IMG/VR virus record: IMGVR_UViG_3300028591_008384
Strand: one strand, 5' to 3'
DNA: 64,000 nucleotides
Source: a virus
Taxonomy: Duplodnaviria > Heunggongvirae > Uroviricota > Caudoviricetes
How positions within the stretch are numbered: the first letter of the stretch is position 1; each line of letters starts with the position of its first letter. Below, one piece after another: positions 8,819 to 57,611 of the stretch. The position numbers were made by a program, and so were the translations under genes. Under the pieces are notes generated by a model, which made no database searches, had not been told where the DNA came from, and worked only from the letters and a program-made list of their open reading frames with translations.

Positions 8819-8822
8819 ATAA

Positions 8823-9476: not shown

Positions 9477-9480
9477 CTAA

Positions 9481-28851: not shown

Positions 28852-28864
28852 TTTTGTACCTCTG

Positions 28865-42766: not shown

Positions 42767-42800
42767 GTTCAAAATATAGCAAAATTATTCCCGATTGGCA
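42767..42800 (-). promoter_or_regulatory. phage promoter motif
   Basis: Reverse complement TTTTGCTATATTTTGAAC-ATG. Confidence 0.45.
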
Positions 42801-44766: not shown

Positions 44767-45115
44767 CCAGGTTGTTCACCTTCGTAAAGAAGGATTCCGT
44801 TTCCAGTTCAACCATGCGATGCTGCTGTTCGCACATCATCACGAATTCTCGGGACAATGTCTTGCACGGAATGAAGGAAAATGTCCTGGCGATTACCGGG
44901 TTACGATACCAGGTATCAACGAAATTCAACTGAATCTGCGCATTGAGGCACTTGAATGAGCCGTTGGCGCATTCACTAATCCAGAATTCCAGGCACACGC
45001 CTTCCTTTCCCTTAGTAAACCGCGTACGGTCACGGTCTGTCCCGAACCCGCGTGATTCCAGCCATTTCCCGAATTCCTGAATTTCTGACCATTTAGGCTT
45101 TGCCATGATTACCAC
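44711..45115 (-). CDS. hypothetical protein
   Basis: ORF track 134 aa. Confidence 0.35.
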   Translation of the reverse strand: MVIMAKPKWSEIQEFGKWLESRGFGTDRDRTRFTKGKEGVCLEFWISECANGSFKCLNAQIQLNFVDTWYRNPVIARTFSFIPCKTLSREFVMMCEQQHRMVELETESFFTKVNNLVAEKNNEIKEINRGARNA

Positions 45116-46344
45116 ATCCTGTTCATTGAATTGTCCAAGTCATCCTTGATGCGCTTGCAGTCGGCGAGGATGACTTCCCGCAGACGCTTGCCAAATTCAG
45201 GCCCTTCCTGAATACCTTCGGCAGCAACCTGCTTTCCGTATTCGGGTTCGCCCTTTCTACACCTAGCAATCAGTTCGCATATTGTCACCGCGCCCTCGCC
45301 CAGGGCAGTGCCATACGGGTTCAGTTCACGGTACAGGTTGGCGATGATCCTGAATTCCGGGGAAGCGGCCAGCTCGACAGAATAGAGCAGCTTCTCATCG
45401 GCAAGGCCGAACTTGCCGGACATGATGCCGATAAGGCCATCCCTGATGCGTTCGGCCATACGGATTTCCTTGCGGGTACAGCGGAGCCATTCCATTGTCT
45501 TCTTCGGCAGCATGCAGATGAATACGGACATGATTGTGTCTGCATCCACGTTGCCGCGCACCAAGGTTTCCACCAGCATGCGCTGACGGTCGAAGCAGAA
45601 GCCGGCATCCTGGAAAATCGATCCGATACCGTAATCGGACAAGTAACCAATCATGTTCACAAATGGCATAACTCCGTACTCGGCGCACTTGTGGAGCTCG
45701 TCATGGATACGTTCCATGGCAACGTTCTTTACATGGTGGAGACGGCTACGCATCGCCAGCTTGGTAAGATCGTCAATCACGAAACCGAAACGGGCAGCAA
45801 ATCGCATTCCGCGGATGATACGGAGGGAATCCTCGGTCATGCGGTCATACGGGTTGCCCACTGCACGAAGACGGCGGAACACCAGGTCATCGATGCCACC
45901 GAAGTAGTCTATGACATTGAGGTCCTTGTCCAGACCCATCGCGTTGATCGTGAAGTCACGACGGGCGCAGTCCTCCTTGAAGGACTTGGTGAAATTCACG
46001 GAATCCGGGTGACGACCGTCGGAGTAGTTGCCATCGACACGGAACTGAGTCACCTCGAACACCAGGCCCTCGTAATGGACCAGGATGGTGCCATGAGCCT
46101 CCCCGTTATTGGAATCGCAGCGGAAGGCAAGTTTCAGGTCCTCGATGGGCATATTGGTCGCGATGTCCACGTCATGGACGGGGACTTCGGCATCGGTGCC
46201 CGGAACCATGCCCAACTGGCGAATAACGAGGTCACGCACCGCACCGCCGGCAATGTATGCCTCGTGCTTGCGCTTGTGGATTTCGGCAAGAAGGCCAAGG
46301 CCCTTCCTGACGGTCTCCGAAATGTACTTCTCTTCAATCTTCAT
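45109..46344 (-). CDS. cca: tRNA nucleotidyltransferase (CCA-adding enzyme, class II polyA-polymerase head-domain type)
   Basis: ORF track 45109..46383 trimmed to the Met (MKIEEKY) 5 nt after the promoter box; motifs AYIAGGAVRDLV ... DVDIAT, RRDFTINAM, EDSLRIIRGMRFAARFGF. Confidence 0.75.
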   Translation of the reverse strand: MKIEEKYISETVRKGLGLLAEIHKRKHEAYIAGGAVRDLVIRQLGMVPGTDAEVPVHDVDIATNMPIEDLKLAFRCDSNNGEAHGTILVHYEGLVFEVTQFRVDGNYSDGRHPDSVNFTKSFKEDCARRDFTINAMGLDKDLNVIDYFGGIDDLVFRRLRAVGNPYDRMTEDSLRIIRGMRFAARFGFVIDDLTKLAMRSRLHHVKNVAMERIHDELHKCAEYGVMPFVNMIGYLSDYGIGSIFQDAGFCFDRQRMLVETLVRGNVDADTIMSVFICMLPKKTMEWLRCTRKEIRMAERIRDGLIGIMSGKFGLADEKLLYSVELAASPEFRIIANLYRELNPYGTALGEGAVTICELIARCRKGEPEYGKQVAAEGIQEGPEFGKRLREVILADCKRIKDDLDNSMNRMW

Positions 46345-46382
46345 GTCCCAAATGTAGCAAAAAGGTTGCCTTGCGGCAACCA
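46345..46382 (-). promoter_or_regulatory. fused intrinsic terminator and phage promoter
   Basis: Reverse complement GGTTGCC-gcaa-GGCAACC hairpin, then TTTTT, then GCTACATTTGGGAC-ATG; this terminates the upstream gene and provides the -33/-7 elements for cca. Confidence 0.5.
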
Positions 46383-46383
46383 T

Positions 46384-47025
46384 CTACTCTTTGGGGGGTT
46401 CGTAACTGTCGTACACCTTGACTTTCACCGTATCCAGCATTTTCTGTGCCTTATGGATAGCATAATGCCTGAATTTCTCGGCATCCGCTTCCTTCATGAA
46501 TATCTTCCCACCAACAAGGCAATGAGAATCCATCATTTTGAGGATAACTGCGTACGCTTCCTTGGGGTCTTTGGAAGGAACGGCCAATGGAGGATCTATT
46601 TTTGCCGGGTGCGGAGGCAGTGGCATCCACCATTCGATGGAATGGCCCTCGTCACCAGTCTGTACATCCAGGCAACGGTCGCTATGCGTGACGATATTGT
46701 TCACATCGGCATGATATTCTCCCCAGTCCAGCATTCCATCTTCCCAAATGAGGAGGACATACCCATCCTTCTCGGTCGGTTCACGCTCTTCCATCGAAAT
46801 CCACATGGAACCGGTGGCGCTTTCACGCTGAAACGCGGCCAGCATCTTCCGTAAAACCGCATTTTCCTCTTCCAGGCGGGCAAAATCGCTAATTGCGGTA
46901 TCGGCGAGCCGTTTCAGGTGTTCAAGTTCGCCCTTATGGACCTCCACCTTGATGTTCTGGGGGAGTTCCATACCGGGCATTATCGGGTAATGTGGTTCCA
47001 ATTCGTTATTGTTCATTCTGTTCAT
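46384..47025 (-). CDS. hypothetical protein
   Basis: ORF track 46384..47058 trimmed to Met12. Confidence 0.35.
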
Positions 47026-47404
47026 TCCTAAAATTTGCGGATTGTGCCCATGCTGCACTCATTAGGGCATCCTGTGCATCGGGGGCATTCTTGTCAACAC
47101 CATAGAACCTACAAAGGCAAGTATACAGATCTTCGTCGCGTTCTACTGTCTCCACGGGTTCGCCACCATATTCCTCGACTTCCTCGAAGCGGTACTTCTG
47201 TTTCACATCCGGGTACTTCTCGTGGTCGACTTCCGAAAGGAACATATCGAGAGGACGGACACAGAGAGACTTGTCGCCATACAGGTGTCGATAGACAACC
47301 ATCGGCTCCTTGGTTTCGGAATGCTTCGCGATGCCCTCGACGATGTAATACTTTCCCTTGAAATGACGGTAGATACCGTGGACGGTCACTTCCCTACTTG
47401 ACAT
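47006..47404 (-). CDS. DUF1653-like protein
   Basis: ORF track 47006..47458 trimmed to Met19; [35 protein letters not shown] resembles the DUF1653 core. Confidence 0.45.
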
Positions 47405-47708
47405 GCTTCTTCTCCGGGAAACGGTGGTCTTCTGGATAGAGGAACGCCTTATCGACATGCTCCCGCCGTTCCTCCATGTGCGCGATAAGTTCCTTCAAGT
47501 ATATGCGGTTGGCCGAATCCTCGGTCCACAGGTCCATCTCGAAATCGCGCTCGGTCTTGGTGGCAGCCTCGGACTTCCACTTCTCAATCAGTTCCTTCGG
47601 GATGGACGCGGCCATCTCGATACACCCTTTCAGGTACCAGGCGTATTCCCGGTCCGTGAGTTCACCGGCGCCATGCCGGCAGCAGGGACAGTTGCAAAAT
47701 TCTCTCAT
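47394..47708 (-). CDS. hypothetical Cys-rich protein
   Basis: ORF track 47394..47741 trimmed to Met12; N-terminus [13 protein letters not shown]. Confidence 0.35.
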
Positions 47709-47866: not shown

Positions 47867-48454
47867 TCAAGAATCACTTCCAGCATCGGCATTCGCCTCA
47901 TCGGGAATATCTCGGTCCATCTCGGCTTCCAGATACTTTTGGAACTTCTCATTGGCGCTGTCCATCTGGTCCGGGAAATCCTCGGTCGCCGTATTCATCA
48001 GGATGTTGAACACCTGGTCGTCCATGTGGAATTCCGGCCTGTCCTTGTTGTACATCAGGCTATTGAAGATGTTACCGTCGGCATGACGCTTCACAGCCGC
48101 TGTCCAGTCAATCCACATTTCAAGCAACTGGTACAGGTTCATGCCGGAAATGCCCTGCGCACCGAAATGTTCCGGGTGATGGTCATTGTTGGCATAGTGA
48201 TGGTCAAGGCCGGGCTTGATCCTGGCCTTGGCATCGTCATAGGACTTCTCACCGAAAGTGCTGCTCTGCAACTGCGGGGTACCCTTGTCGAAATACTTGT
48301 GCTCCGGATCTTCCAGCTTGGAAGCATCATGGTGGGTAAGGCGTTCAAGGAACTTGTCACAGAACTTCTTACCGTTCTCGTTCACGAGGTCAATATGCTT
48401 CTGGGTTTCCGGACGGGAATCTCCCTCATATTCCGGCTTATCGTATCTAGGCAT
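47867..48454 (-). CDS. hypothetical protein (His-rich DHHYANNDHHPEHF motif)
   Basis: ORF track 195 aa. Confidence 0.4.
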   Translation of the reverse strand: MPRYDKPEYEGDSRPETQKHIDLVNENGKKFCDKFLERLTHHDASKLEDPEHKYFDKGTPQLQSSTFGEKSYDDAKARIKPGLDHHYANNDHHPEHFGAQGISGMNLYQLLEMWIDWTAAVKRHADGNIFNSLMYNKDRPEFHMDDQVFNILMNTATEDFPDQMDSANEKFQKYLEAEMDRDIPDEANADAGSDS

Positions 48455-49927: not shown

Positions 49928-49972
49928 ACAAAAATATAGCAAAAAAGACACGGCTTTGAAGAAAGCCGTGCC
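49928..49972 (-). promoter_or_regulatory. intrinsic terminator (hairpin CACGGCTTT-cttcaa-AAGCCGTG plus T-run) immediately followed by the phage promoter box
   Basis: Reverse complement cacggctttcttcaaagccgtgtcttttttgctatatttttgtcATG; the terminator of the kinase gene and the promoter of the next gene share the T-tract. Confidence 0.5.
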
Positions 49973-49992: not shown

Positions 49993-50712
49993 TTACTTGG
50001 AGACGATTTCCACGATGCGCTCGGCGATCCGCTTCACGTCTTCGCGTACCTCATTCGCAAATACGACGGGTTCCGGGAAATGCGGGTCGTTGGAAGCACA
50101 CCACTTGTTGTACAGGTTATTCTGCATGTCGTCCGTAAGGGCGACCATCTTCCTGAAATTGGCCAGCAGCAGCTTGTTCTTGTCGTATTCCTCCTGGGGC
50201 AACACAAGGAACCCACGGCATTCGGTCTGGATATTGTTACGGATTGCATAACGGGAAACAACTCGGTCGATGCGCTCGTCGGTATTCGGCACGGTGATGC
50301 GGAATACATGGTCGATGGTACGCGCCGGGTTGACCCATTCGTACATCCACTTGCACATGACGGCGCTCTCGATGAAGATCGTCTTGTCGTTATACTGCCG
50401 GTCAAAGGTGAAATCGCAGAATATCTGCCCAAGCGCCAAACGCAGCGGGTACTGGACAAGGTTCATGAGGAAGTCATAGACCGTCCCGTCCTTCAATGCG
50501 AGGTCACGCACTTCCTGTGACAGGGAACCGAATGCATCGATTGCATCCGGGCCCCAGATGGATGTGACAGTACCGTACACGCTAGGGTTGCTCCTGTAGA
50601 TAACCTTCATCAGGTTGTCCGTGTTGATGACCGGGTAGCCCATCTTCCTGAGTTCCTCGGCCACACTGCTCTTCCCAGAGCCGATATTTCCACAAATGAT
50701 ACCGATTTTCAT
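49993..50712 (-). CDS. P-loop kinase, dephospho-CoA-kinase-like fold (possible nucleotide/polynucleotide kinase)
   Basis: ORF track 49993..50862 trimmed to Met51; Walker A IGIICGNIGSGKSSVAEELRKMGYPVINTDNL parallels the CoaE N-terminus. Confidence 0.45.
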   Translation of the reverse strand: MKIGIICGNIGSGKSSVAEELRKMGYPVINTDNLMKVIYRSNPSVYGTVTSIWGPDAIDAFGSLSQEVRDLALKDGTVYDFLMNLVQYPLRLALGQIFCDFTFDRQYNDKTIFIESAVMCKWMYEWVNPARTIDHVFRITVPNTDERIDRVVSRYAIRNNIQTECRGFLVLPQEEYDKNKLLLANFRKMVALTDDMQNNLYNKWCASNDPHFPEPVVFANEVREDVKRIAERIVEIVSK

Positions 50713-50713
50713 G

Positions 50714-51829
50714 CTATTTCTCCACTTTGAGAATGTAATCAGGTTCCATATCAGCATTGGCACCGCCGCTGATGGTGTCGCGATACGGGTCAAGGATGCG
50801 TTCCTTGTCGATCCAGGACGCGCAGAGGTTTCCGTTCGGGTGGAACACGGCCTCGTAGACACGGTTCGGGTGCTTCTTTACCTCGATGCCCTGCTGCACC
50901 ATGTTCGCACCCTCGGAGGCGACCGTCGCGCCACGGTACTTGTAGATTTCCACATAGTAATAGTAGCCGAGGATGTTCAGGTACTTCTCGAATTCCGGGT
51001 AATTATCAATCTTGGCCCAGATATCGTTCAGCCTGACCTTGTTGTCCACGCAATACTGGGTCTTTTCCAGGTTGATTGCGGTCGTGTCGTAGTCCATGAG
51101 TTCGCGGAAGATGAAGTTGTTGGCGCCCATGTCGATATAGGTGTCCAGGTACTCCTTCATCTTCTCCACGGAGTTCACTTCCTCCTTCAAGAGGAGGCAG
51201 GAGATGCGGTGCTTCATGTCGGAATGGTTCGTGATGTCGATGATGTCGCGCATCATTTCATTGGAACAGAACCCTTCCTCGTTGTTGAAGCGCATGAGAC
51301 GCTTCGCGGCCTCGTCGGAAATGGCCGGGCGGGAGATGTTCAGGTGGTTCCAGCCGTTGTCCATCAGGTGGTCGATGACCATCTTGTTCCCGACCTTGTC
51401 GAACAGGTGGGAACCGTTGGTCGTGATTGTGCGCTTGCGGAAGCCGAGCTCGTTCACCATTTCGAGAACCGGGATGAGCTTCTTGGACATGGTCGGTTCA
51501 CCGCCCGTGATGGAAATGCTCGGGTTGAGGGGACGGATCATTTCAAGGATTTCACGGCAACGGGGAAGCCACTGGTCATCCGGCAGCTTCTCCTTCTGGT
51601 ACATCAGGCCCTTGTTGGCGTAGCGGAGCTGCGCGACACAGAACTTGCAGTCCGCGTTGCAGTAGTCGCTGATGAAGATACTGAAGTTGAAGTTCTTGTA
51701 GACATCGTACTCGCCGGTCCAGAACCTGTGATGGATGCTCTCGTACTGGGTGATGTCGTAATTCTTCTGGCGTTCTTCCCTGAGTTCGGGCTGCCAGCGA
51801 ATTTCTCTTTCTGCACCTACTTTAATCAT
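50714..51829 (-). CDS. radical SAM enzyme (paralog of 51826..52788)
   Basis: ORF track 371 aa; CNADCKFC (CxxxCxxC) and ISITGGEPT SAM-binding motif; ATGA overlap with the upstream gene. Confidence 0.6.
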   Translation of the reverse strand: MIKVGAEREIRWQPELREERQKNYDITQYESIHHRFWTGEYDVYKNFNFSIFISDYCNADCKFCVAQLRYANKGLMYQKEKLPDDQWLPRCREILEMIRPLNPSISITGGEPTMSKKLIPVLEMVNELGFRKRTITTNGSHLFDKVGNKMVIDHLMDNGWNHLNISRPAISDEAAKRLMRFNNEEGFCSNEMMRDIIDITNHSDMKHRISCLLLKEEVNSVEKMKEYLDTYIDMGANNFIFRELMDYDTTAINLEKTQYCVDNKVRLNDIWAKIDNYPEFEKYLNILGYYYYVEIYKYRGATVASEGANMVQQGIEVKKHPNRVYEAVFHPNGNLCASWIDKERILDPYRDTISGGANADMEPDYILKVEK

Positions 51830-52788
51830 AGTGCCTCTCCGTGGAATCCTTTCCTGATGATGCCGTGGTTGAACGAAAGCGAACCAATAACGTCGGCATC
51901 GACCACATGGTTCGTGTAAACCTTGACAATGTACGTCATGCCGGTCTCATGCGAGGTATAGAGATACAGCTCGATGTCGTAGAACATGCCGTTCACTGTC
52001 CTGATGTATTCAAAGTCCCTGCTCATCCGCACCGCGTCGGCAATCCAGGCAATGGGTGCCCACATCCTCTGCATCTTCCCTTCGAGTTCGCGGAACAGGC
52101 AGCTTTCAATCCCGTTCTTGTACTGGAAATCGACAAAGTGGAGCATCTTCTGGTATGTATCGACGAAACCGGATAGGAAATTGGTACTGGTGCGCAACTG
52201 GACCCCGTTCGCCTTGGCGATGGTCGCGAGGCGCCTGAGGTCATCGTTTCCGATGTTGCGCTGCCTGGACGAATACTTCTCGCCCATCATGATGCGGTCG
52301 TTCTCCCATTCGTCCTCGGCCATGCGGCTGATCGAGATATTGTGGGTGTACCCGTTCTCGATGAGGTGCTGGAAGACGGTCTTCCCCTCGTACTTTTCAA
52401 GGAGGCCGATGCCGGTGGTAGACACGGTGCGCTCATGCACCCCGTGCTTGACCAGGATACGGACCGTCTCGACCAGGCGCCTCGGGAGAAGGGTGGGTTC
52501 CCCGCCCGTGATGGTCGCTTCCAGCTTCACGCCGGACAACTTTTCCAGGCCATTCTCCAGGTCCTCGTAATAGGTGGTGTCGCCCATGCGGAACTGGTCC
52601 GTCTGCCCCTTGTTGATGCAGAAGTCGCATGCGTTCTGGCACGTATTCGTGATGAACACGTTCAGGTTGCAGGGGTTGTAGAACCTGTACTCGGTTTCGC
52701 CCACCTTCACGGTGTCCACCGAGGCATGCTCGACATCGTGCTGCTCGGTCACGAAGTCGTCGTATGGAGCGAACTTGATGGTATTCAC
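51826..52788 (-). CDS. radical SAM enzyme (paralog of 50714..51829)
   Basis: ORF track 51826..52866; CQNACDFC and ATITGGEPT; proposed GTG start at 52786-52788 overlapping the TGA of the upstream rSAM gene (tcGTGAat) with SD gagagg. Confidence 0.55.
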   Translation of the reverse strand: MNTIKFAPYDDFVTEQHDVEHASVDTVKVGETEYRFYNPCNLNVFITNTCQNACDFCINKGQTDQFRMGDTTYYEDLENGLEKLSGVKLEATITGGEPTLLPRRLVETVRILVKHGVHERTVSTTGIGLLEKYEGKTVFQHLIENGYTHNISISRMAEDEWENDRIMMGEKYSSRQRNIGNDDLRRLATIAKANGVQLRTSTNFLSGFVDTYQKMLHFVDFQYKNGIESCLFRELEGKMQRMWAPIAWIADAVRMSRDFEYIRTVNGMFYDIELYLYTSHETGMTYIVKVYTNHVVDADVIGSLSFNHGIIRKGFHGEAL

Positions 52789-53456
52789 GACAGGTTCCTC
52801 TCGTGTTCGGAACGGGCAACCAGGTCCTGCTGGAAACAGAGACCATCGACCGAGTAAATCTTCCATTCCTCGATGTTCTGGACGATCTTCACGCCGTCAT
52901 AGTCGCTACCGGTCATCTTCCCGTAACTCTGGAGGAAGAACGAGTGGTTGATGGCCTCCATGCCGGCCTTCTTTATTTCCTCGTCAATCCATTCGTCGTT
53001 GTAGCGCTTGCGGGTGTTGAGGACGATGTTGAAGTTCGGCATGTATTCGGTGGCGAACACATAGTCGGCAATCAGCTTGATGTGGTCCTCGTGCTTCTTG
53101 ATGAGCCAGTAGTTCACCGACACCTTGATTTCGAACGGCACGTCATACCACTTGTACACGCTCACCAGGCGCGGCAGGTGCTTACCGAGCACGATGCCGT
53201 TCGTAAGGATGTTCACCTTCTTGCAACGGCCAGTCGCGATGGCGTATTCGAGGAATAGGTAGAAATTCCTGTGGATCAGGGGTTCACCGCCCTCGAACTG
53301 TATCTCGAATTCCCCGTAGCAGTCATCCACGATCCGGCGGAACACGTCGAACTTCATGTCGATTGTCTTGCCGGTCCCGGAATACATGCAGCAGAACGGA
53401 CAGTCCGTGTTGCAGCGGTTCGTGATGTTGATGTATAGTCTTGTTCCTTTTTCCAT
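52785..53456 (-). CDS. small radical SAM enzyme (223 aa)
   Basis: ORF track; CNTDCPFC and FEGGEPL; leaderless after the promoter box. Confidence 0.55.
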   Translation of the reverse strand: MEKGTRLYINITNRCNTDCPFCCMYSGTGKTIDMKFDVFRRIVDDCYGEFEIQFEGGEPLIHRNFYLFLEYAIATGRCKKVNILTNGIVLGKHLPRLVSVYKWYDVPFEIKVSVNYWLIKKHEDHIKLIADYVFATEYMPNFNIVLNTRKRYNDEWIDEEIKKAGMEAINHSFFLQSYGKMTGSDYDGVKIVQNIEEWKIYSVDGLCFQQDLVARSEHERNLS

Positions 53457-53523
53457 ACAGCAAATATAGCATTGGCAAATAAAAATGGCAACCAGTGTAC
53501 GGGGACACCGGTTGCCATCCAGA
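53457..53523 (-). promoter_or_regulatory. fused intrinsic terminator (TGGCAACC...GGTTGCCA hairpin plus T-run) and phage promoter
   Basis: Reverse complement tggcaaccggtgtccccgtacactGGTTGCCAtttttatttgccaaTGCTATATTTGctgtATG. Confidence 0.5.
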
Positions 53524-53539
53524 AGGAGAAAGGTTCTGA

Positions 53540-53785
53540 CTACTTCTTCTTGGCCTTGAGAGCAGCCACGGTAGCCTGCAACTTGGAAATCTTGTCCTGG
53601 GCCTTGGCGAGCTTGGCAGCGGAGGCGGCAGAAGCCTTGGCAGCCTTGGCGTTGGCGGAGGCGAGGGCCTTGGCGAGCTTGCTGTTATCAGCAGTGAGCT
53701 TCTTGATGGTGGCCTTGGATTCCTTGTCGGCAGTGCACTTTGCGGCGCAAGTCTTGGAGGCAGTAGCAACAGCGTTCTTTTTCAT
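53540..53785 (-). CDS. Ala/Lys-rich small basic protein (histone H1-like / low-complexity)
   Basis: ORF track 81 aa; the sequence is almost entirely A/K/S/T; promoter box GTTGCCAAC...TTGCTATATTC upstream at 53822-53860. Confidence 0.4.
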   Translation of the reverse strand: MKKNAVATASKTCAAKCTADKESKATIKKLTADNSKLAKALASANAKAAKASAASAAKLAKAQDKISKLQATVAALKAKKK

Positions 53786-53821: not shown

Positions 53822-53860
53822 ACGAGAATATAGCAATAAATTGACAAGTTGGCAACAGTT
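53822..53860 (-). promoter_or_regulatory. phage promoter motif
   Basis: Reverse complement TGTTGCCAACTTGTCAATTTATTGCTATATTCTCG. Confidence 0.45.
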
Positions 53861-53883: not shown

Positions 53884-53959
53884 TGCCGACGGCCAGGGTC
53901 GAACTGGCAACCTGTCGATTAGAAGTCGAGTGCTCTGAAGTCCATTGAGCTACGCCGGC
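53884..53959 (-). tRNA. tRNA-Arg(TCT)
   Basis: Hand-folded: acceptor GCCGGCG/CGTCGGC, T-arm GCCAGTTCGACCCTGGC, anticodon loop CTTCTAA; C27/C43 mismatch noted. Confidence 0.5.
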
Positions 53960-53966
53960 TGAAAGA

Positions 53967-54323
53967 CTACGCCTTGGCCGGTCTCAATACTAGCTGATGC
54001 CTGGAATCCGCCCAGACAGTGGAAGGGGACGTGCCGCTGTAACCGCGGATGTCCACCGTGGAATGCCCGTCGGAATAGGTGAATACATCGGTGGTGCCAT
54101 GCTGATTGACGGCGCCATCGGCGAAAAGGGTGAAACCGAACTCGGAAGGGCCACCGGCGACCTCGCCACCCTGGCCCCTGAGCCATTCCTTGGCGGCATC
54201 GAAATCGCCACCGGTCGCTTCCAGGGCCTGCTTGCAGAGAAGCATGCTCACCTGGGTCGCCTTGCGCAATTCGTTGATCTGTGCCACCGTAACCATAATG
54301 TATCCTTTGTTGAATAAAGCCAC
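53967..54323 (-). CDS. hypothetical protein with N-terminal EF-Ts N-terminal (UBA-like) type domain
   Basis: ORF track 118 aa; VTVAQINELRKATQVSMLLCKQALEATGGDFDAAKEWLR resembles the EF-Ts N-terminal helix bundle ([24 protein letters not shown]...); the remainder is unrelated to EF-Ts. Confidence 0.4.
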   Translation of the reverse strand: MALFNKGYIMVTVAQINELRKATQVSMLLCKQALEATGGDFDAAKEWLRGQGGEVAGGPSEFGFTLFADGAVNQHGTTDVFTYSDGHSTVDIRGYSGTSPSTVWADSRHQLVLRPAKA

Positions 54324-54342
54324 GACATTCCGGATGACTTAG

Positions 54343-54416
54343 GGTATCAGACAAGACTTGAACTTGCAACGGCTGGTTCCACAAACCAGGGCTCCACCGA
54401 TTGAGCTACTGACACC
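54343..54416 (-). tRNA. tRNA-His(GTG) with encoded G-1
   Basis: Acceptor G-1 plus GTGTCAG/CTGATAC, C73; anticodon stem CTGGT/ACCAG with loop TTGTGGA. Confidence 0.6.
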
Positions 54417-54422
54417 ATGTAG

Positions 54423-54511
54423 AAGAGAGGGCGGGGCTCGAACCCGCATGTGAGTTTTGGGGCCCACGACGATTTAGCAAACCGTTCGCTTACCTATTAG
54501 CGTACCTCTCC
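54423..54511 (-). tRNA. tRNA-Ser(GCT), class II
   Basis: Acceptor GGAGAGG/CCTCTCT; anticodon stem ACGGT/ATCGT with loop TTGCTAA; long variable arm; T-arm GCGGGTTCGAGCCCCGC. Confidence 0.55.
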
Positions 54512-54515
54512 ATAG

Positions 54516-54589
54516 CTCCGACAGCTCGACTCGAACGAGCAACCGGTTCATTACGAATGAACTGCTCTACCATTTGAGCTATGTCGGAA
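54516..54589 (-). tRNA. tRNA-Thr(CGT)
   Basis: Acceptor TCCGACA/TGTCGGA; anticodon stem GTTCA/TGAAC with loop TTCGTAA; T-arm GCTCGTTCGAGTCGAGC. Confidence 0.6.
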
Positions 54590-54592
54590 TAG

Positions 54593-54665
54593 TCAGCGTG
54601 AGTGGGTACGATCCACCGACCTCATGCTCCCGAAGCATGCGCTCTACCAGCTGAGCTACACACTG
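54593..54665 (-). tRNA. tRNA-Pro(CGG)
   Basis: Acceptor CAGTGTG/CACGCTG; anticodon stem CATGC/GCATG with loop TTCGGGA. Confidence 0.5.
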
Positions 54666-54671
54666 ATTTAG

Positions 54672-54755
54672 CGGAAGCGGAGGGATTCGAACCCCCAAGT
54701 CCTTGCGGAACCACGGATTTCAAGTCCGCTTGAGTCACCAATCTCATGCGCTTCC
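54672..54755 (-). tRNA. tRNA-Ser(TGA), class II
   Basis: Acceptor GGAAGCG/CGCTTCC; anticodon stem GCGGA/TCCGT with loop CTTGAAA; long variable arm. Confidence 0.55.
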
Positions 54756-54759
54756 ATAA

Positions 54760-54846
54760 CGGAAGCGGCAGGACTTGAACCTACATGAGGAACTTCCTCA
54801 CCGCCGGGTTCGAGCCGGGGGCCTTACCAATTAGGTCTACGCTTCC
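54760..54846 (-). tRNA. tRNA-Ser(CGA), class II
   Basis: Acceptor GGAAGCG/CGCTTCC; anticodon loop CTCGAAC on a 4-bp stem with a C/C mismatch; long variable arm. Confidence 0.45.
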
Positions 54847-54853
54847 AAATTCG

Positions 54854-54940
54854 CGGAAATGGGAGGACTCGAACCTCCATGCAGCTTTCGCCACCACGCT
54901 CCATTCCAAGGAGGGCCAATACCAATTATGGGACACTTCC
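54854..54940 (-). tRNA. tRNA-Ser(GGA), class II
   Basis: Acceptor GGAAGTG/CATTTCC; anticodon loop TTGGAAT on a stem CTCC/GGAG with a C/C at 27:43; long variable arm; T-arm GGAGGTTCGAGTCCTCC. Confidence 0.5.
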
Positions 54941-54946
54941 AAAGAG

Positions 54947-55019
54947 TGGGACCGGGAGGAGTCGAACCTACGACGCGAAGCTTTTCAGGCTTCCGCTCTA
55001 CCAACTGAGCTACAGCCCC
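54947..55019 (-). tRNA. tRNA-Phe(GAA)
   Basis: Acceptor GGGGCTG/CGGTCCC; anticodon stem GAAGC/GCTTC with loop CTGAAAA. Confidence 0.55.
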
Positions 55020-55028
55020 ATAAAATCG

Positions 55029-55112
55029 AGCACTTAGCAGGACTCGAACCTGCGAAGGGATTACCCAGCAGATTTGCAGTCTGCTTCCTTTGCCGCTCGG
55101 ATTCATAAGTGC
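55029..55112 (-). tRNA. atypical 84-nt tRNA with anticodon GCA (Cys-type anticodon; enlarged D region and about 14-nt variable arm)
   Basis: Acceptor GCACTTA/TAAGTGC; anticodon stem GCAGA/TCTGC with loop CTGCAAA; T-arm GCAGGTTCGAGTCCTGC; GGGTAATCCC mini-helix in the variable region. Confidence 0.4.
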
Positions 55113-55148
55113 ATTTTAATAATCCATTACAAAAGTTCAAAAACTATA

Positions 55149-55239
55149 TCCCGAAGACAGGCGTCGAACCTGCATGCTGCATGCGAATACAGCGCCGGAT
55201 CCTAAGTCCGGGGTGTCTACCAATTCCACCACCTCGGGG
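55149..55239 (-). tRNA. tRNA-Leu(TAG), class II
   Basis: Acceptor CCCGAGG/CTTCGGG, A73; anticodon stem CCGGA/TCCGG with loop CTTAGGA; long variable arm. Confidence 0.55.
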
Positions 55240-55246
55240 AAATTCG

Positions 55247-55317
55247 TTGGCCTGCCCGGTTTCGAACCAAGACCGCAGGCTTCAAGGGCCCCCGTGCTAC
55301 CGTTACACCACAAGCCA
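55247..55317 (-). tRNA. tRNA-Gln(TTG)
   Basis: U1-A72 acceptor TGGCTTG/CAGGCCA (Gln-like); anticodon TTG in loop CCTTGAA (position 33 is C); T-arm CTTGGTTCGAAACCGGG. Confidence 0.45.
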
Positions 55318-55321
55318 ATAG

Positions 55322-55393
55322 TAGCCCCTCCGAGGCTCGAACTCGGGTGCCGGGATTGAGAATCCCGTGACTTAACCGCTGGTCTAAAGGGCC
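55322..55393 (-). tRNA. tRNA-Glu(CTC)
   Basis: Acceptor GGCCCTT/AGGGGCT; anticodon stem CGGGA/TCCCG with loop TTCTCAA; T-arm CCGAGTTCGAGCCTCGG. Confidence 0.5.
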
Positions 55394-55402
55394 AAACATT
55401 CG

Positions 55403-55476
55403 TCCCCAGAGAAGGACTTGAACCTTCAAATTAGTGGTTTTGAATCACTCGCCTCTGCCAGTTCGGCTACCTGGGG
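55403..55476 (-). tRNA. class-I-length tRNA with Leu anticodon CAA (short variable arm)
   Basis: 74 nt; acceptor CCCCAGG/TCTGGGG, A73; D-region GCCGAACTGGCAGAGGC; anticodon loop TTCAAAA; 5-nt variable region; T-arm GAAGGTTCAAGTCCTTC. Confidence 0.45.
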
Positions 55477-55483
55477 AAATTCA

Positions 55484-55557
55484 TCTTCCGAGAAGGAGTC
55501 GAACCTTCAAAATCACGACCCTGAATCGTGCACCTATGCCAATTCGGTTACCGGAAG
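55484..55557 (-). tRNA. class-I-length tRNA with Leu anticodon CAG (short variable arm)
   Basis: 74 nt; acceptor CTTCCGG/TCGGAAG, A73; anticodon stem CACGA/TCGTG with loop TTCAGGG; T-arm GAAGGTTCGACTCCTTC. Confidence 0.5.
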
Positions 55558-55563
55558 AAGTAG

Positions 55564-55634
55564 AGCGCCTATCCGGTCACGATCCGGAACCAACTGCTTG
55601 GAGGGCAGTGATGCAGCCATTACACCATAGGCGC
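55564..55634 (-). tRNA. tRNA-Gly(TCC)
   Basis: Acceptor GCGCCTA/TAGGCGC; anticodon stem ACTGC/GCAGT with loop CCTCCAA; T-arm TCCGGATCGTGACCGGA. Confidence 0.5.
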
Positions 55635-55638
55635 ATAA

Positions 55639-55715
55639 TGCGGGCAGCGGGACTCGAACCCGCGACCCATAGATTAAAAGTCTATTGCTCTAAAAACCGA
55701 CTGAGCTATACCCGC
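55639..55715 (-). tRNA. tRNA-Lys(TTT)
   Basis: Acceptor GCGGGTA/TGCCCGC; anticodon stem ATAGA/TCTAT with loop CTTTTAA; T-arm GCGGGTTCGAGTCCCGC. Confidence 0.6.
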
Positions 55716-55800
55716 GAAGTGCAGTTGAAAGAGCAATGGCCAACTGCTACCATCATAATCGGGTGCGTTTCAAAATCTTTTTCATTGTTTTACTCCTTAG

Positions 55801-55873
55801 TCGCCAGAGTGGGACTCGAACCCACAGATGACCGGGTTTAAGCCAGTTGTCTCTGCCATTCGACTACCTGGCG
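55801..55873 (-). tRNA. class-I-length tRNA with Leu anticodon TAA (short variable arm)
   Basis: 73 nt; acceptor CGCCAGG/TCTGGCG, A73; anticodon stem ACTGG/CCGGT with loop CTTAAAC; T-arm GTGGGTTCGAGTCCCAC. Confidence 0.5.
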
Positions 55874-55886
55874 TTAGTTTGTTTAG

Positions 55887-55969
55887 TCTCGATGGCTGGA
55901 CTTGAACCATGCACTCTGTTACGAACCAGCCCCTCAAGCTGGCGGGTCTACCAATTCCCCCACATCGAG
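55887..55969 (-). tRNA. tRNA-Leu(GAG), class II
   Basis: Acceptor CTCGATG/CATCGAG, A73; anticodon stem CCAGC/GCTGG with loop TTGAGGG; 15-nt variable arm; weak T-stem. Confidence 0.45.
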
Positions 55970-55973
55970 ATAG

Positions 55974-56044
55974 AGCACCTATCCGGGTACGATCCGGAGC
56001 CTTAACCTTGGCAAGGTCACTTGCTACCACTACAACATAGGTGC
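55974..56044 (-). tRNA. tRNA-Gly(GCC)
   Basis: Acceptor GCACCTA/TAGGTGC; anticodon stem TGACC/GGTTA with loop TTGCCAA; T-arm TCCGGATCGTACCCGGA. Confidence 0.5.
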
Positions 56045-56054
56045 ATATAAATAG

Positions 56055-56130
56055 TTGCCCGTGATGGATTTTAACCACCGAATGGACGCTTCAGAGGCGT
56101 CTGCCTTAGAACGGACTTGGCGAACGGGCA
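56055..56130 (-). tRNA. tRNA-Gln(CTG)
   Basis: U1-A72 acceptor TGCCCGT/ACGGGCA; D-arm GCCAAGTCCGTTCTAAGGC (Gln-like); anticodon stem GACGC/GCGTC with loop CTCTGAA. Confidence 0.55.
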
Positions 56131-56138
56131 ATAAGTAG

Positions 56139-56224
56139 TGCCGGTTGATGGATTCGAACCACCGAGAGTTCGTTAGAACGGGAGATTTACAGGCTCCAGC
56201 CATTGGCCACTAGGCGAAACCGGC
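56139..56224 (-). tRNA. tRNA-Tyr(GTA), class II, copy 1
   Basis: Acceptor GCCGGTT/AACCGGC; anticodon loop CTGTAAA on stem GGAGC/TCTCC (31:39 mismatch); long variable arm; T-arm GGTGGTTCGAATCCATC. Confidence 0.5.
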
Positions 56225-56228
56225 ATAG

Positions 56229-56301
56229 CTCCACCTCCTGGACTCGAACCAGGGACCATGCGATTAACAGTCGCACGCTCTACCAACTGAGCTAAGGTGG
56301 A
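56229..56301 (-). tRNA. tRNA-Asn(GTT)
   Basis: Acceptor TCCACCT/AGGTGGA; anticodon stem TGCGA/TCGCA with loop CTGTTAA; T-arm CCTGGTTCGAGTCCAGG. Confidence 0.6.
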
Positions 56302-56311
56302 ATAAAAATAG

Positions 56312-56400
56312 TGGGTTGGGTAGGATTCGGACCTACAATGTTGACCCTAAGGGACCGGATTTACAGTCCGGCGCGACACCGCCATCGCCGCAGCCAACCC
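56312..56400 (-). tRNA. tRNA-Tyr(GTA), class II, copy 2
   Basis: Acceptor GGGTTGG/CCAACCC; anticodon stem CCGGA/TCCGG with loop CTGTAAA; long variable arm; unusually long 5-bp D-stem. Confidence 0.5.
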
Positions 56401-56413
56401 ATAGAATTTTTCG

Positions 56414-56486
56414 CAGGGACTGAGAGATTCGGACTCCCGACATGCAGTTTTGGAGACTGCCGTTCTTCCAGCTGAACTAAATCCCT
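56414..56486 (-). tRNA. tRNA-Trp(CCA)
   Basis: Acceptor AGGGATT/AGTCCCT; anticodon stem GCAGT/ACTGC with loop CTCCAAA; T-arm GGGAGTCCGAATCTCTC. Confidence 0.55.
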
Positions 56487-56493
56487 ATATTCG

Positions 56494-56569
56494 TACTCGA
56501 TCTTGGATTCGAACCAAGGTTGTTTCTGCTTGTAAGGCAGACGCCATCGACCAGCTAGGCGAATCGAGT
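56494..56569 (-). tRNA. tRNA-Val(TAC)
   Basis: Acceptor ACTCGAT/ATCGAGT; anticodon stem TCTGC/GCAGA with loop CTTACAA; T-arm CTTGGTTCGAATCCAAG. Confidence 0.55.
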
Positions 56570-56575
56570 ATATAA

Positions 56576-56649
56576 CGAGAGCGGCGGGGTTCGAACCCGC
56601 GAATGGCGGTTAGACAGACCGCTGTGTTGAGCCTCTTCACCACGCCCTC
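56576..56649 (-). tRNA. tRNA-Asp(GTC)
   Basis: Acceptor GAGGGCG/CGCTCTC; anticodon stem GCGGT/ACCGC with loop CTGTCTA; T-arm GCGGGTTCGAACCCCGC. Confidence 0.55.
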
Positions 56650-56654
56650 AAAAT

Positions 56655-56760
56655 GGTTAACGCAGCCCCCGGTGCTTTAGGTTCTTATGTTGTTTCGGCG
56701 CTTTGTACCGACCGACCTTAACTTTGTCGGAGCCGGCATTCTTTAACTGCCGGGCTGCAT
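56655..56760 (-). ncRNA. structured about 105-nt element embedded in the tRNA array (candidate ncRNA / tRNA-like; unassigned)
   Basis: Terminal helix GCAGCCCGG...CCGGGGGCTGC enclosing internal hairpins (CCGAC-aaagttaag-GTCGG and others); no canonical T-arm or anticodon stem-loop. Confidence 0.25.
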
Positions 56761-56762
56761 CG

Positions 56763-56837
56763 TTGCGGAAGAAGGATTTGAACCTTCGACCAACGGATTA
56801 TGATTCCGCTGCTCTGACCGGGCTGAGCTACACCGCA
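56763..56837 (-). tRNA. tRNA with anticodon CAT (elongator Met or Ile2/lysidine type; not initiator-like)
   Basis: Acceptor TGCGGTG/TTCCGCA (U1-A72, one T/T mismatch); anticodon stem GCGGA/TCCGT with loop ATCATAA; T-arm GAAGGTTCAAATCCTTC; lacks the three G-C pairs and the C1/A72 mismatch of bacterial initiators. Confidence 0.5.
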
Positions 56838-56849
56838 ATAATTTGTTAG

Positions 56850-56921
56850 TGCTCCTACCTGGGCTCGAACCAGGATCCACAGATTAAGAGTCTGCTCGTC
56901 TAGCCATTGACATATAGAAGC
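56850..56921 (-). tRNA. tRNA-Lys(CTT)
   Basis: Acceptor GCTTCTA/TAGGAGC; anticodon stem GCAGA/TCTGT with loop CTCTTAA; T-arm CCTGGTTCGAGCCCAGG. Confidence 0.55.
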
Positions 56922-56925
56922 ATAG

Positions 56926-56999
56926 TCCTCACCCCTGAACTCGAATCAGGAACCTCTACCTTATCAGAGTAGCTATCTAACCAATTGATATAGATGAGG
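56926..56999 (-). tRNA. tRNA-Ile(GAT)
   Basis: Acceptor CCTCATC/GGTGAGG; anticodon stem CTACT/GGTAG with loop CTGATAA; T-arm CCTGATTCGAGTTCAGG. Confidence 0.5.
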
Positions 57000-57071
57000 A
57001 TGGTGGAGCACGATGCAGCCTAGGCTGCTTCCCGGCAAAGCCGGATGGATACTGCCCCAAAATCCATTTAG

Positions 57072-57144
57072 TAGCGCTGCCGGGATTCGAACCCGAGTTC
57101 CATGGTTGAAAACCATGTGTCCTAGGCCTCTAGACGACGGCGCC
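57072..57144 (-). tRNA. tRNA-Glu(TTC)
   Basis: Acceptor GGCGCCG/CAGCGCT (one C/A mismatch); Glu-like D-arm GTCTAGAGGCCTAGGAC; anticodon stem CATGG/CCATG with loop TTTTCAA. Confidence 0.55.
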
Positions 57145-57155
57145 ATAAGTTGTAG

Positions 57156-57231
57156 TGATTCTGCCTGGGGTCGAACCAGGAATCTTCTCGTTCGTAGCGA
57201 GATGCCTTCAAATCCATTTGGCGACAGAACC
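57156..57231 (-). tRNA. tRNA-Arg(ACG)
   Basis: Acceptor GGTTCTG/CAGAATC; anticodon stem TCTCG/CGAGA with loop CTACGAA; T-arm CCTGGTTCGACCCCAGG. Confidence 0.55.
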
Positions 57232-57236
57232 ATAGT

Positions 57237-57309
57237 GGAACGTGACGGGATTCGAACCCGTGACCTCTTCGGTGCGAACGAAGCGCTCTTCCAACTGAGC
57301 TACACCCCC
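57237..57309 (-). tRNA. tRNA-Ala(CGC) with G3:U70
   Basis: Acceptor GGGGGTG/CACGTTC (G3:U70 wobble present, G4/G69 mismatch), C73; anticodon stem CTTCG/CGAAG with loop TTCGCAC; T-arm ACGGGTTCGAATCCCGT. Confidence 0.5.
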
Positions 57310-57319
57310 ATAGAGTAGT

Positions 57320-57394
57320 GGATACATATCGGGCTCGAACCGATGACCTCCTGAGTGCAAATCAGGCGCTCTACCAAAACTGAGCTAATGACCC
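57320..57394 (-). tRNA. tRNA-Ala(TGC)-like
   Basis: Anticodon arm CCTGA-TTTGCAC-TCAGG; the E. coli Ala(TGC) arm is CCTGC-TTTGCAC-GCAGG; T-arm ATCGGTTCGAGCCCGAT; acceptor GGGTCAT/ATGTATC has two mismatches, so the boundaries are uncertain. Confidence 0.4.
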
Positions 57395-57404
57395 ATAGTG
57401 TACT

Positions 57405-57479
57405 GGACCGATATCGGGCTCGAACCGATGACCTCCTGCATGCCATGCAGGCGCTCTACCAAAGCTGAGCTAATGGCCC
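57405..57479 (-). tRNA. tRNA-Ala(GGC)-like, copy 1
   Basis: Anticodon arm CCTGC-ATGGCAT-GCAGG; the E. coli Ala(GGC) arm is CTTGC-ATGGCAT-GCAAG; acceptor GGGCCAT/ATCGGTC has two mismatches. Confidence 0.4.
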
Positions 57480-57538
57480 ATAATAAAAGTCATCCGAAAT
57501 GTCAATCTGCTGCTAGGCTTCACGAGCCAAGCGTTAGT

Positions 57539-57611
57539 GGAACGTGACGGGATTCGAACCCGTGACCTCCTCGCTGCCAGCGAGGCGCTCTTCCAACTGA
57601 GCTACACCCCC
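57539..57611 (-). tRNA. tRNA-Ala(GGC) with G3:U70, copy 2
   Basis: Same backbone as Ala(CGC) (GGGGGTG...CACGTTC-C); anticodon stem CCTCG/CGAGG with loop CTGGCAG. Confidence 0.5.

Follow-up and report, generated by a model that had tools for sequence, protein, structure and literature searches.

A phage copy of a widespread radical-SAM cassette with a possible link to pyridine-nucleotide metabolism

The 64,000-nucleotide stretch of the Caudoviricetes record IMGVR_UViG_3300028591_008384 analysed here (hereafter the window) carries on its minus strand three consecutive genes for radical S-adenosylmethionine (radical-SAM) proteins, termed S, M and L in the order of transcription, followed by a gene for a P-loop kinase. 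We tentatively read this S-M-L-kinase unit as the phage copy of a widespread, unnamed radical-SAM cassette that acts on a small molecule of the pyridine-nucleotide type, related to nicotinamide adenine dinucleotide (NAD) or ADP-ribose, a reading to which we give slightly less than an even chance. The cassette itself we rate as a new functional family and a new architecture within the radical-SAM enzymes. No account of a radical-SAM enzyme tied to NAD salvage operons or to phage NAD restoration (NARP1-3) was found in the literature, coverage of which was incomplete; the word ‘radical' is absent from the main comparative paper on jumbo phages, and ‘radical SAM' from the paper on NAD-jumbo phages. 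A reading of the window made from its letters alone (the sequence-only reading) had suggested a previously undescribed phage pathway. The pathway does appear to be undescribed; it is not specific to phages, as most lineages that carry the cassette are cellular.

Results

The cassette recurs among NAD and ADP-ribose genes

Loci carrying the cassette were gathered from genomes, IMG/VR and metagenomes; the 141 loci collapse at 85% identity of L to 63 clusters, which are treated as non-redundant lineages. All open reading frames (ORFs) within 7 kb of the cassette were clustered and lineage-specific phage genes were removed. The recurring neighbours are NadD (13 loci), an NrtR-like Nudix regulator (12 loci; for NrtR regulators see Rodionov et al. 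2008, PMC2330246), NAPRTase/PncB (10 loci), NadE and NadK (8 loci each), and PncA and PncC (7 loci each), joined by phosphoribosyl pyrophosphate synthetase, Nudix hydrolase, ADP-ribosylglycohydrolase, NADAR and Macro domains. One or more NAD genes are present at the locus in 14 of the 63 non-redundant L clusters, a count that includes locus L028, where a Macro domain follows L, and that rises to 15 with the NADAR gene of L014. By our own rough estimate a NAD gene is expected in about 5% of random 20-kb segments. Co-directional clustering with NAD-salvage genes extends over at least four phyla and phages, with differing gene orders.

Within these clusters the cassette is inserted among the NAD genes, in the same direction and in an order that depends on the lineage. 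Locus L020 reads PncA-PncB-Nudix-NadE-NadD-S-M-L-Ploop-ARH-PncC-(178 aa)-NadK-NrtR, where the 281-residue protein after the P-loop gene is an ADP-ribosylglycohydrolase (ARH) by Pfam. The order is S-M-L-PncA-PncB-Nudix-NadE-NadD-NadK-NrtR in L010 and S-M-L-Ploop-PncB-PncA-NadE-NadD-NrtR in a member of the Dojkabacteria (L029), which belong to the candidate phyla radiation (CPR). PncB and PncA lie within 3 kb upstream of S-L in a Pirellulaceae locus (L060), NrtR and PncA within about 2 kb upstream in Johnsonella (L017), and a Lachnospiraceae locus (L012) has NADAR-NrtR-S-M-L. Among phages, L135 shows PncB-S-L-rSAM-NadE-PncA-NadD-Nudix, while in the phage-like, 425-kb L004 an NAPRTase gene stands upstream of S-M-L, which is followed by an aldolase_II-AAA_33 kinase fusion, a deoxyribosyltransferase-like protein and PncA, and further downstream by a cytidylyltransferase-like (NadD-type) protein and NAD synthase. 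A NAPRT/NAMPT-family gene is found within 10 kb of the cassette in five phage lineages (L004, L028, L093, the L095 group and L135). The commonest immediate NAD neighbours of the cassette are PncA and PncB.

The window encodes NAD and ADP-ribose enzymes of its own (Table 1), all overlooked by the sequence-only reading, as was the recurrent embedding of the cassette among NAD-salvage and ADP-ribose genes: an NAPRTase-family protein 22 kb from the unit, a fusion of nicotinamide mononucleotide/nicotinic acid mononucleotide (NMN/NaMN) adenylyltransferase (NMNAT) and Nudix domains at 15 kb, and a PARG at 5 kb. The NAPRTase matches Pfam NAPRTase (E = 9.5e-52) and NAPRTase_N, and matches a hidden Markov model (HMM) built from the cassette's PncB neighbours at E = 6e-62; naive ORF calling hides its gene behind a longer ORF on the opposite strand. 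The NMNAT-Nudix fusion matches Pfam CTP_transf_like and NUDIX as well as the NadD and NrtR/Nudix HMMs. Together they make up the classic NAD salvage pair of jumbo phages, and both may be distal functional partners of the cassette. Because the window holds NAPRTase, NMNAT-Nudix, PARG and the NAD-consuming RNA 2'-phosphotransferase Tpt1/KptA, its phage is a typical ‘NAD-jumbo phage' as PMC11662467 and PMC7824862 use the term, with a radical-SAM cassette in addition. A second, unrelated radical-SAM gene occurs in the NAD cluster of Ruminococcus locus L005 (10927-12837), where a 636-residue HemN-like radical-SAM-Nudix fusion, encoded on the other strand from the cassette, neighbours NrtR, PncA and NAPRTase.

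S and L form the conserved core

The sequence-only reading treated the three radical-SAM genes as one set. Across loci the conserved element is instead the S-L pair: S lies directly beside L (or M-L) in 137 of 141 loci, its gene being the universal partner just upstream of L, or of M where M is present, and natural S-L fusions exist as single polypeptides (P0307, of 617 residues, and P0334). It is very likely that the pair functions as a single enzyme system. More than 487 homologs of L are present in a large protein collection, and the S family comprises 112 representative clusters at E ≤ 1e-10. M is confined to a subset, mainly Firmicutes-type cassettes and their phage relatives, where it occurs either free (about 305-325 residues) or as the C-terminal half of fusions of about 650 residues (for example L001 and L005). 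M is a duplicated L. The N-terminal domain of the M fusions, about 340 residues long and found in Lachnospiraceae/Ruminococcus (L001 9049-10068, with equivalents in L005, L007 and L013), has no match in Pfam, NCBIfam or the PDB.

Carriers among the Firmicutes include Lachnospiraceae, Ruminococcus, Erysipelotrichaceae and other Bacilli metagenome-assembled genomes. The cassette is also present in CPR Dojkabacteria, in the DPANN archaea Woesearchaeota and Nanoarchaeota, in Myxococcota (all Sorangium genomes sampled, and Enhygromyxa), and in Planctomycetota, Obscuribacterales and cyanobacteria. Mobile carriers include phages ranging in size from 73 kb to about 440 kb and a Rep3 plasmid-like contig; in the 73-kb phage, Dulem virus 40, L is annotated ‘molybdenum cofactor biosynthesis enzyme'. 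The lineage of the window's phage is common in assemblies, on contigs of 398-465 kb, and keeps the S-M-L-kinase order even where the kinases share only 44% identity. An identity with the ‘Jug' gut megaphages was ruled out by their G+C content, 27-30% against about 52% in the window. No DNA similarity to the 4-kb region was found in deposited phages; in a tblastn search Dulem virus 40 was the sole match, and a plasmid search returned only a Hymenobacter protein of 22% identity.

S, M and L are radical-SAM proteins outside the named families

Each of the three ORFs is present and carries CX3CX2C and GGE motifs, and each scores above the Pfam Radical_SAM (PF04055) gathering score of 29.5 bits (S 43.9, M 35.1 and L 41.4 bits), placing all three in the radical-SAM superfamily as the sequence-only reading had proposed. 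Conservation of the cluster motif, whose absence that reading had named among the findings that would refute it, was observed in 136 of 138 S, 34 of 36 M and 140 of 144 L homologs (94-99%); the motifs are not there by chance. M and L are indeed paralogs (29% identity over 210 residues, E = 4e-25). S matches L over the cluster/SAM core alone (E = 9e-5) and is not a close paralog of it.

None of the three matches a curated family model at threshold in Pfam, NCBIfam, PHROGs or PADLOC, all similarities being at the level of the superfamily or below the cut-off. The best NCBIfam match is viperin_w_prok (NF038283), with 51.5 bits for L against a cut-off of 180 (M 29.6, S 28.4); the PADLOC pVip model matches L at E = 2e-16, a signal of distant homology only. 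MoaA (TIGR02666) has a cut-off of 284 bits, against which L scores 46.0, S 38.2 and M 24.0. Membership of the SPASM/twitch maturases finds no support in the scores for HxsC (31.5 against 267.9 bits) and HxsB (18.4 against 370), nor does membership of the glycyl-radical activases in those for NrdG2 (32.4 against 131) and PFLA (22 against 232); no glycyl-radical-enzyme-like partner is present among the conserved neighbours of the cassette. A QueE assignment, which calls for a score at or above the cut-off and QueC/QueD/FolE partners, fails at 23 against 260 bits, and the CofH models give 17.7 and 12.2 bits against 426 and 374. MiaB, TYW1 and RlmN/Cfr likewise showed no above-threshold similarity in NCBIfam. 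The sequence-only reading had been unable to place the proteins in QueE, NrdG/PflA-activase, MoaA, viperin or MiaB-like families, and had mentioned HxsB/HxsC only by analogy; its caution is justified by these scores. Sequence searches of the PDB returned matches to the cluster-binding core only.

The AlphaFold models are of high confidence, with pLDDT values of 88.6 for L and 96.8 for S. In structure comparisons the characterised folds closest to L are MoaA and viperin, while the best match of S is the peptide epimerase EpeE/YydG, with SkfB and SuiB also ranking high. By these models S and L belong to the MoaA/viperin/SPASM-type branch of the superfamily. Characterised MoaA/viperin-type enzymes take hydrogen from nucleotide riboses. 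The only conserved cysteines in 53 non-redundant L sequences are C57, C61 and C64 of the cluster motif and C211 in an RxSCLL motif, which M lacks, having T in place of C211. Beyond the cluster motif there is at most one conserved cysteine column each in S and L, and no SPASM, twitch or MoaA-type auxiliary cluster is conserved in these L sequences or in 67 non-redundant S sequences.

The kinase position is filled repeatedly from different protein families

The last gene of the window's unit is predicted to encode a CoaE-superfamily kinase, as the sequence-only reading had supposed. The protein scores 36.5 bits against Pfam CoaE (PF01121, cut-off 27) over its N-terminal ~65 residues only (5-70 of 180), 30.3 bits against the equivalog TIGR00152, whose cut-off is 65.55, and E = 6e-8 against the dephospho-CoA kinase structure 2if2. 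Its close homologs are limited to the same phage lineage, always after S-M-L. The nearest cellular relatives are dephospho-CoA kinases of Prevotella (about 28% identity), a hint that the host may resemble Prevotella.

Directly after L, 16 of the 63 clusters have a small P-loop protein. This is an AAA_28 protein (Pfam E = 2.4e-29), with no PDB match by sequence, in Myxococcota and in one cyanobacterium, one nanoarchaeon and one gammaproteobacterium; AAA_28 is the family of the NadR ribosylnicotinamide-kinase domain. Bacilli and CPR have a 188-residue AAA_18-like P-loop protein in this place, and in L004 the AAA_33 fusion directly follows L. CoaE-family kinases occur in two unrelated phage lineages, a full-length CoaE lying just upstream of L in phage L131, and abundant gut phages of about 150 kb have a PNK3P-type HAD phosphatase in place of the kinase after L. 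That a kinase or phosphatase has been recruited time and again, from non-orthologous sources, suggests that the pathway includes a phosphorylation step at the nucleoside or nucleotide level. Some loci hold a further protein with an N-terminal domain of unknown type, between L and the AAA_28 kinase in cyanobacterial L035 (3719-4714, fused there to a Methyltransf_24 methyltransferase) and nanoarchaeal L038 (1889-2665), and between L and S in phage L131 (3284-3688).

Organization of the unit in the window

The genes of the unit are tightly packed and translationally coupled, as described in the sequence-only reading: the stop of S and start of M overlap as GTGA, the stop of M and start of L as ATGA, and the kinase ATG at 50712 is one base past the L stop codon. 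The start of M was placed at GTG 52788 because M homologs are uniformly 320 residues long, and a 289-residue GTG ORF for the kinase was set aside in favour of the 239-residue frame. A promoter-like element (TTGCCA, 17-nucleotide spacer, TG-TATATT) occurs twice on the minus strand, at 53827-53855 before an Ala/Lys-rich (A/K) ORF and again before S, and may represent a phage middle or late promoter motif; a weaker site (TTCAAA, 16-nucleotide spacer, TATATT) lies past the kinase at 49933-49960. Counts of promoter- and terminator-like matches are no higher than in shuffled controls, and their placement is argued from position. On that argument the region 53463-53520 is probably the start of the S-M-L-kinase transcription unit, and the hairpin past the kinase probably its end.

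The 81-residue A/K ORF, which the sequence-only reading had listed with the cluster, exists; its own promoter-like and terminator-like sites set it apart from the unit. Because a hairpin and a promoter-like site lie between it and S, the transcription unit appears to be S-M-L-kinase without the A/K gene. Homologs of the A/K protein are confined to the window's own phage lineage (L087, with equivalent small ORFs in L143 and L145), and no significant family match was obtained in Pfam, NCBIfam, PHROGs or PADLOC. This gene is probably a neighbour outside the module.

Table 1. Features of the window referred to in the text
Feature	Position	Strand	Remarks
rSAM-S	52785-53456	minus	223 aa; motifs CNTDCPFC and EGGEP
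rSAM-M	51826-52788 (ORF 51826-52866)	minus	320 aa; motifs CQNACDFC and TGGEP
rSAM-L	50714-51829	minus	371 aa; motifs CNADCKFC and TGGEP
CoaE-family P-loop kinase (predicted)	49993-50712	minus	239 aa, starts MKIGIICGNIGSGKSS; last gene of the unit
Terminator-like hairpin	53520-53483	minus	16 bp; between the A/K ORF and S; consensus match
Promoter-like site	53491-53463	minus	just upstream of S, overlaps the hairpin; consensus match
Terminator-like hairpin	49972-49947	minus	11-bp stem then TTTTTT, 20 nt past the kinase stop; consensus match
A/K-rich ORF	53540-53785	minus	81 aa; own promoter-like site and terminator-like hairpin
NAPRTase-family gene (PncB-like)	27478-28920	minus	
NMN/NaMN adenylyltransferase-Nudix fusion	34735-35823	minus	
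PARG, microbial type	43879-44766	minus	
Tpt1/KptA	17368-17940	plus	NAD-consuming RNA 2'-phosphotransferase
PTH2-like peptidyl-tRNA hydrolase	26138-26608	minus	
RlaP nucleotidyltransferase	41420-42772	minus	
CCA-adding/poly(A) polymerase-family enzyme	45109-46383	minus	

Other features of the window

Genes for DUF1653 and DUF5662 proteins (47006-47458 and 47867-48454, minus strand) lie just downstream of the unit, a synteny kept in L143 and L145. Upstream is a tRNA array (53884-57611, minus strand) of 36 genes covering all 20 amino acids; a further tRNA-Gly gene is at 31186-31258, and the nearly identical array of L087 has 33 tRNAs. Inside the array, between tRNA-Arg and tRNA-His, an ORF of 109-118 residues (53967-54323, minus strand) shows similarity to elongation factor Ts in its UBA-like N-terminal domain (TIGR00116 E = 9e-10; Pfam EF-Ts_N) and is kept at the same place in L143 and L145. 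Tpt1/KptA, the PTH2-like protein, RlaP, PARG and the CCA-adding enzyme make up an RNA-repair/ADP-ribose toolkit, of which the PolyA_pol-PARG-RlaP-dUTPase synteny is kept in L145. G+C content dips to 0.35 at 8001-10000, against about 0.52 elsewhere, across several ORFs of about 210-250 residues (7438-10173). One of them, MSNDYIIISMTSYPARI, is similar to an ORF close to the cassette of L088. The region may have been acquired horizontally, as an island perhaps of the glycosyltransferase type.

Discussion

A possible route from the cassette into NAD metabolism

For the substrate class, the direction of the reaction, the role of the kinase and the benefit to the phage, we infer the following. S and L would form a two-component radical-SAM enzyme whose substrate is small, probably phosphorylated or carboxylated, and related to the pyridine nucleotides. 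With 5'-deoxyadenosyl radicals derived from SAM, this enzyme would produce or transform a pyridine base, nucleoside or nucleotide, M may serve as an accessory or second-step subunit, and the kinase may phosphorylate a substrate or product at the nucleoside level. The product would join NAD synthesis at the level of PncA, PncB or NMNAT, in the window's phage through its own NAPRTase and NMN/NaMN adenylyltransferase. The phage might benefit by keeping up NAD against host immunity that depletes it and for its own NAD consumers such as Tpt1/KptA.

Several observations weigh against a role in pyridine-nucleotide metabolism. We know of no NAD step that requires radical chemistry, and the gene neighbourhood would fit the synthesis, the consumption or the repair of a metabolite alike. 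In about three quarters of the non-redundant contexts no NAD gene is seen as far as 10 kb from the cassette, which is often solitary, be it in phages, on the Rep3 plasmid-like contig or on bacterial chromosomes. In the window, too, the NAD genes are not adjacent to it. In Sorangium the S-L pair with its AAA_28 gene lies near Cas3-like (assigned by sequence only) and Uma2 genes, which lends the locus the flavour of a defence island. In a third type of context, which has no NAD genes, the partners of S-L are a PaaK-like adenylating enzyme, a VWA/metallopeptidase-like protein and a MoxR-like ATPase. No NAD or other relevant Rfam riboswitch was detected upstream of the cassette at 15 bacterial loci, and a palindrome scan, uninformative in AT-rich intergenic DNA, gave no definable NrtR operator. 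The sole riboswitch match, of the THF type, lies about 10 kb from the cassette in L018. The third context is seen in Obscuribacterales, Terriglobia and Planctomycetota (L047, L052, L055, L064, L070, L074, L080 and L086); its proteins are a HExxH/VWA-like protein of about 600 residues, one of about 190 residues and a PaaK/DVU_1553-like enzyme of 460 residues, which is fused to S in some genomes (P0271), and the MoxR-like ATPase is nearby in L047 and L070, the HExxH/VWA-like and MoxR-like identities coming from sequence motifs only.

A bolder form of the pyridine-nucleotide proposal, which we regard as doubtful, sees in S-L (or S-M-L) and the kinase a hitherto unknown way into the NAD pool that relies on radical-SAM chemistry and needs no oxygen; the pyridine base, nucleoside or nucleotide that it yields would enter via PncB or NMNAT. 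Anaerobes with small genomes (Bacilli, CPR and DPANN) would use this route for housekeeping, it would be mobile on plasmids, and large phages would have captured it as a fourth NAD-restoring counter-defence.

Nucleotide modification in the manner of viperin or MoaA

The cassette could instead modify nucleotides, the kinase lifting a nucleoside or nucleoside monophosphate to the level of the substrate, L (with M) abstracting a hydrogen from the ribose, and S completing the reaction. The product might be an antimetabolite or chain terminator, serving defence in bacteria and host shut-off or competition between phages in phages, or a precursor for nucleic-acid modification. We judge this unlikely, yet its fold, kinase pairing and mobility keep it a serious rival. 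Not only are MoaA and viperin the nearest characterised folds to L and viperin models its best sub-threshold family matches, the pairing of a radical-SAM gene with a kinase also resembles known viperin-kinase pairs, for which PADLOC has a model (‘Viperins associated with kinases'). In vertebrates, viperin and CMPK2 are likewise paired genes. The solitary, mobile cassettes of phages and of the plasmid-like contig, the defence-type genes of the Sorangium locus, and the HD phosphohydrolase or PNK3P-type phosphatase near some loci are consistent with such a function. However, L falls far under the viperin cut-off, and S and L belong to no PADLOC defence family beyond the weak pVip match. Prokaryotic viperins are single radical-SAM proteins, whereas here a second one, S, is obligatory and sometimes fused; the kinases are of the CoaE, AAA_28 and AAA_33 families and not nucleoside-monophosphate kinases. 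Nor would nucleotide modification explain why, in Bacilli and CPR with small genomes, the cassette is inserted among the housekeeping genes nadD, nadE, nadK, pncA and pncB.

Consumption or remodelling of NAD-derived molecules

The same neighbourhoods could reflect an enzyme that consumes or remodels NAD-derived molecules: in ADP-ribose recycling or detoxification, in the repair of pyridine nucleotides, in making a NAD-derived cofactor, or, in phages, in destroying NAD-derived immune signals. Gene context alone does not separate this proposal from our favoured one. The NADAR (L012 and L014), Macro (L028), ADP-ribosylglycohydrolase (L020) and Nudix neighbours agree with it, as does the PARG close to the unit in the window. 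The effector of NrtR regulators is ADP-ribose, and the target of CoaE-type kinases, as established for dephospho-CoA kinase, is the 3'-OH of an ADP moiety. The invariant cysteine of L might donate a hydrogen atom, as is typical of radical-SAM enzymes for epimerization or repair such as YydG and spore photoproduct lyase. We nevertheless hold consumption to be distinctly unlikely: the nearest and most frequent neighbours, PncA and PncB, are biosynthetic entry enzymes, so supply fits better, and radical-SAM chemistry on ADP-ribose is, to our knowledge, without precedent.

Peptide maturation and tRNA modification

The sequence-only reading had likened the genes to the peptide maturases HxsB and HxsC, in which case the A/K-rich protein or another peptide would be the substrate of a maturase for ribosomally synthesised and post-translationally modified peptides. 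The structural matches of S to EpeE/YydG, SkfB and SuiB and the weak HxsC matches point in this direction, and the MoxR- and VWA-like neighbours of one context type, assigned from motifs, might suggest protein maturation. Against this, no conserved ORF of 18-85 residues exists outside the S and L coding frames in the 63 non-redundant loci, the only candidates being alternative-frame artefacts within S and L. The A/K ORF is restricted to one lineage and looks separately transcribed, neither auxiliary-cluster cysteines nor regions of the SPASM, twitch or RRE type are found, and the HxsC score is far below its cut-off; the proposal is very improbable.

A pathway modifying tRNA or other RNA in the service of the 37 tRNAs of the phage, in which the kinase would be an RNA 5'-OH kinase, had seemed attractive from the 36-tRNA array 340 bp from the unit, and it could draw on the RNA-repair genes RlaP, CCA-adding enzyme, Tpt1/KptA and PTH2 of the window and on the PNK3P-type phosphatase of the ~150-kb gut phages, yet there is equally little to recommend it, as the array adjoins the cassette only in the window and its closest relative (L087, 95% identical), no tRNA lies within 10 kb in the 80%-identical L088 and L089 or at most other phage and bacterial loci, the cassette is found in cellular genomes where no tRNA or RNA-modification context surrounds it, and MiaB, TYW1, RlmN/Cfr and QueE gave nothing above threshold.

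Implications

NAD biosynthesis is regarded as a closed chapter, consisting of de novo routes from aspartate or tryptophan and of salvage, while NAD depletion and restoration have become central to the conflict between phages and bacteria. If the pyridine-nucleotide reading is correct, the cassette would represent either a new entry into the NAD pool or new chemistry on molecules derived from NAD or ADP-ribose. The metabolism reconstructed for anaerobes of gut and rumen would change, predicted vitamin B3 auxotrophies among it, and phages would have acquired a new class of counter-defence. The MoaA/viperin branch of the radical-SAM enzymes would gain a new functional family.

Comparison with known systems

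The window's kinase resembles CoaE in its P-loop, its N-terminal Pfam match and its PDB matches. It differs in scoring under the equivalog cut-off and in aligning well only over its first ~65-80 residues; no other CoA-pathway genes were seen in the annotated part of the window. Compared with MoaA, the GTP 3',8-cyclase, L lacks the C-terminal three-cysteine auxiliary cluster, having one extra conserved cysteine only, is always paired with a second radical-SAM protein, S, and has no MoaC or molybdopterin genes among the recurring neighbours of its cassette, in addition to the gap in score (46 against 284 bits). Prokaryotic viperins with kinases have one radical-SAM gene where the cassette has two or three, their kinases are of other families than CoaE, AAA_28 and AAA_33, and a NAD salvage operon is no viperin context.

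Operons with CofG/CofH, HxsB/HxsC or AhbC/AhbD provide a parallel for more than one radical-SAM gene in an operon, the cassette having two paralogs (M and L) and another such protein. CofG and CofH also exist as the fused FbiC, and split and fused variants are likewise found in the cassette. The differences from CofG/CofH and HxsB/HxsC are the sub-threshold scores, the lack of SPASM domains and a precursor peptide, and an obligate pair, S and L, that are not close paralogs.

Phage NAD restoration is known in three forms, NARP1 (Adps and Namat), NARP2 (Nampt and Nmnat) and NARP3 (PnuC and a NadR-like enzyme). No described system contains a radical-SAM enzyme, which is where the cassette departs from them. 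The likeness lies in the surrounding genes: the window's phage has an NAPRTase and an NMNAT-Nudix protein like the known NAD sets of jumbo phages (PMC7824862, PMC11662467), and elsewhere among phages PncB, PncA, NadD and NadE genes are intermingled with the cassette.

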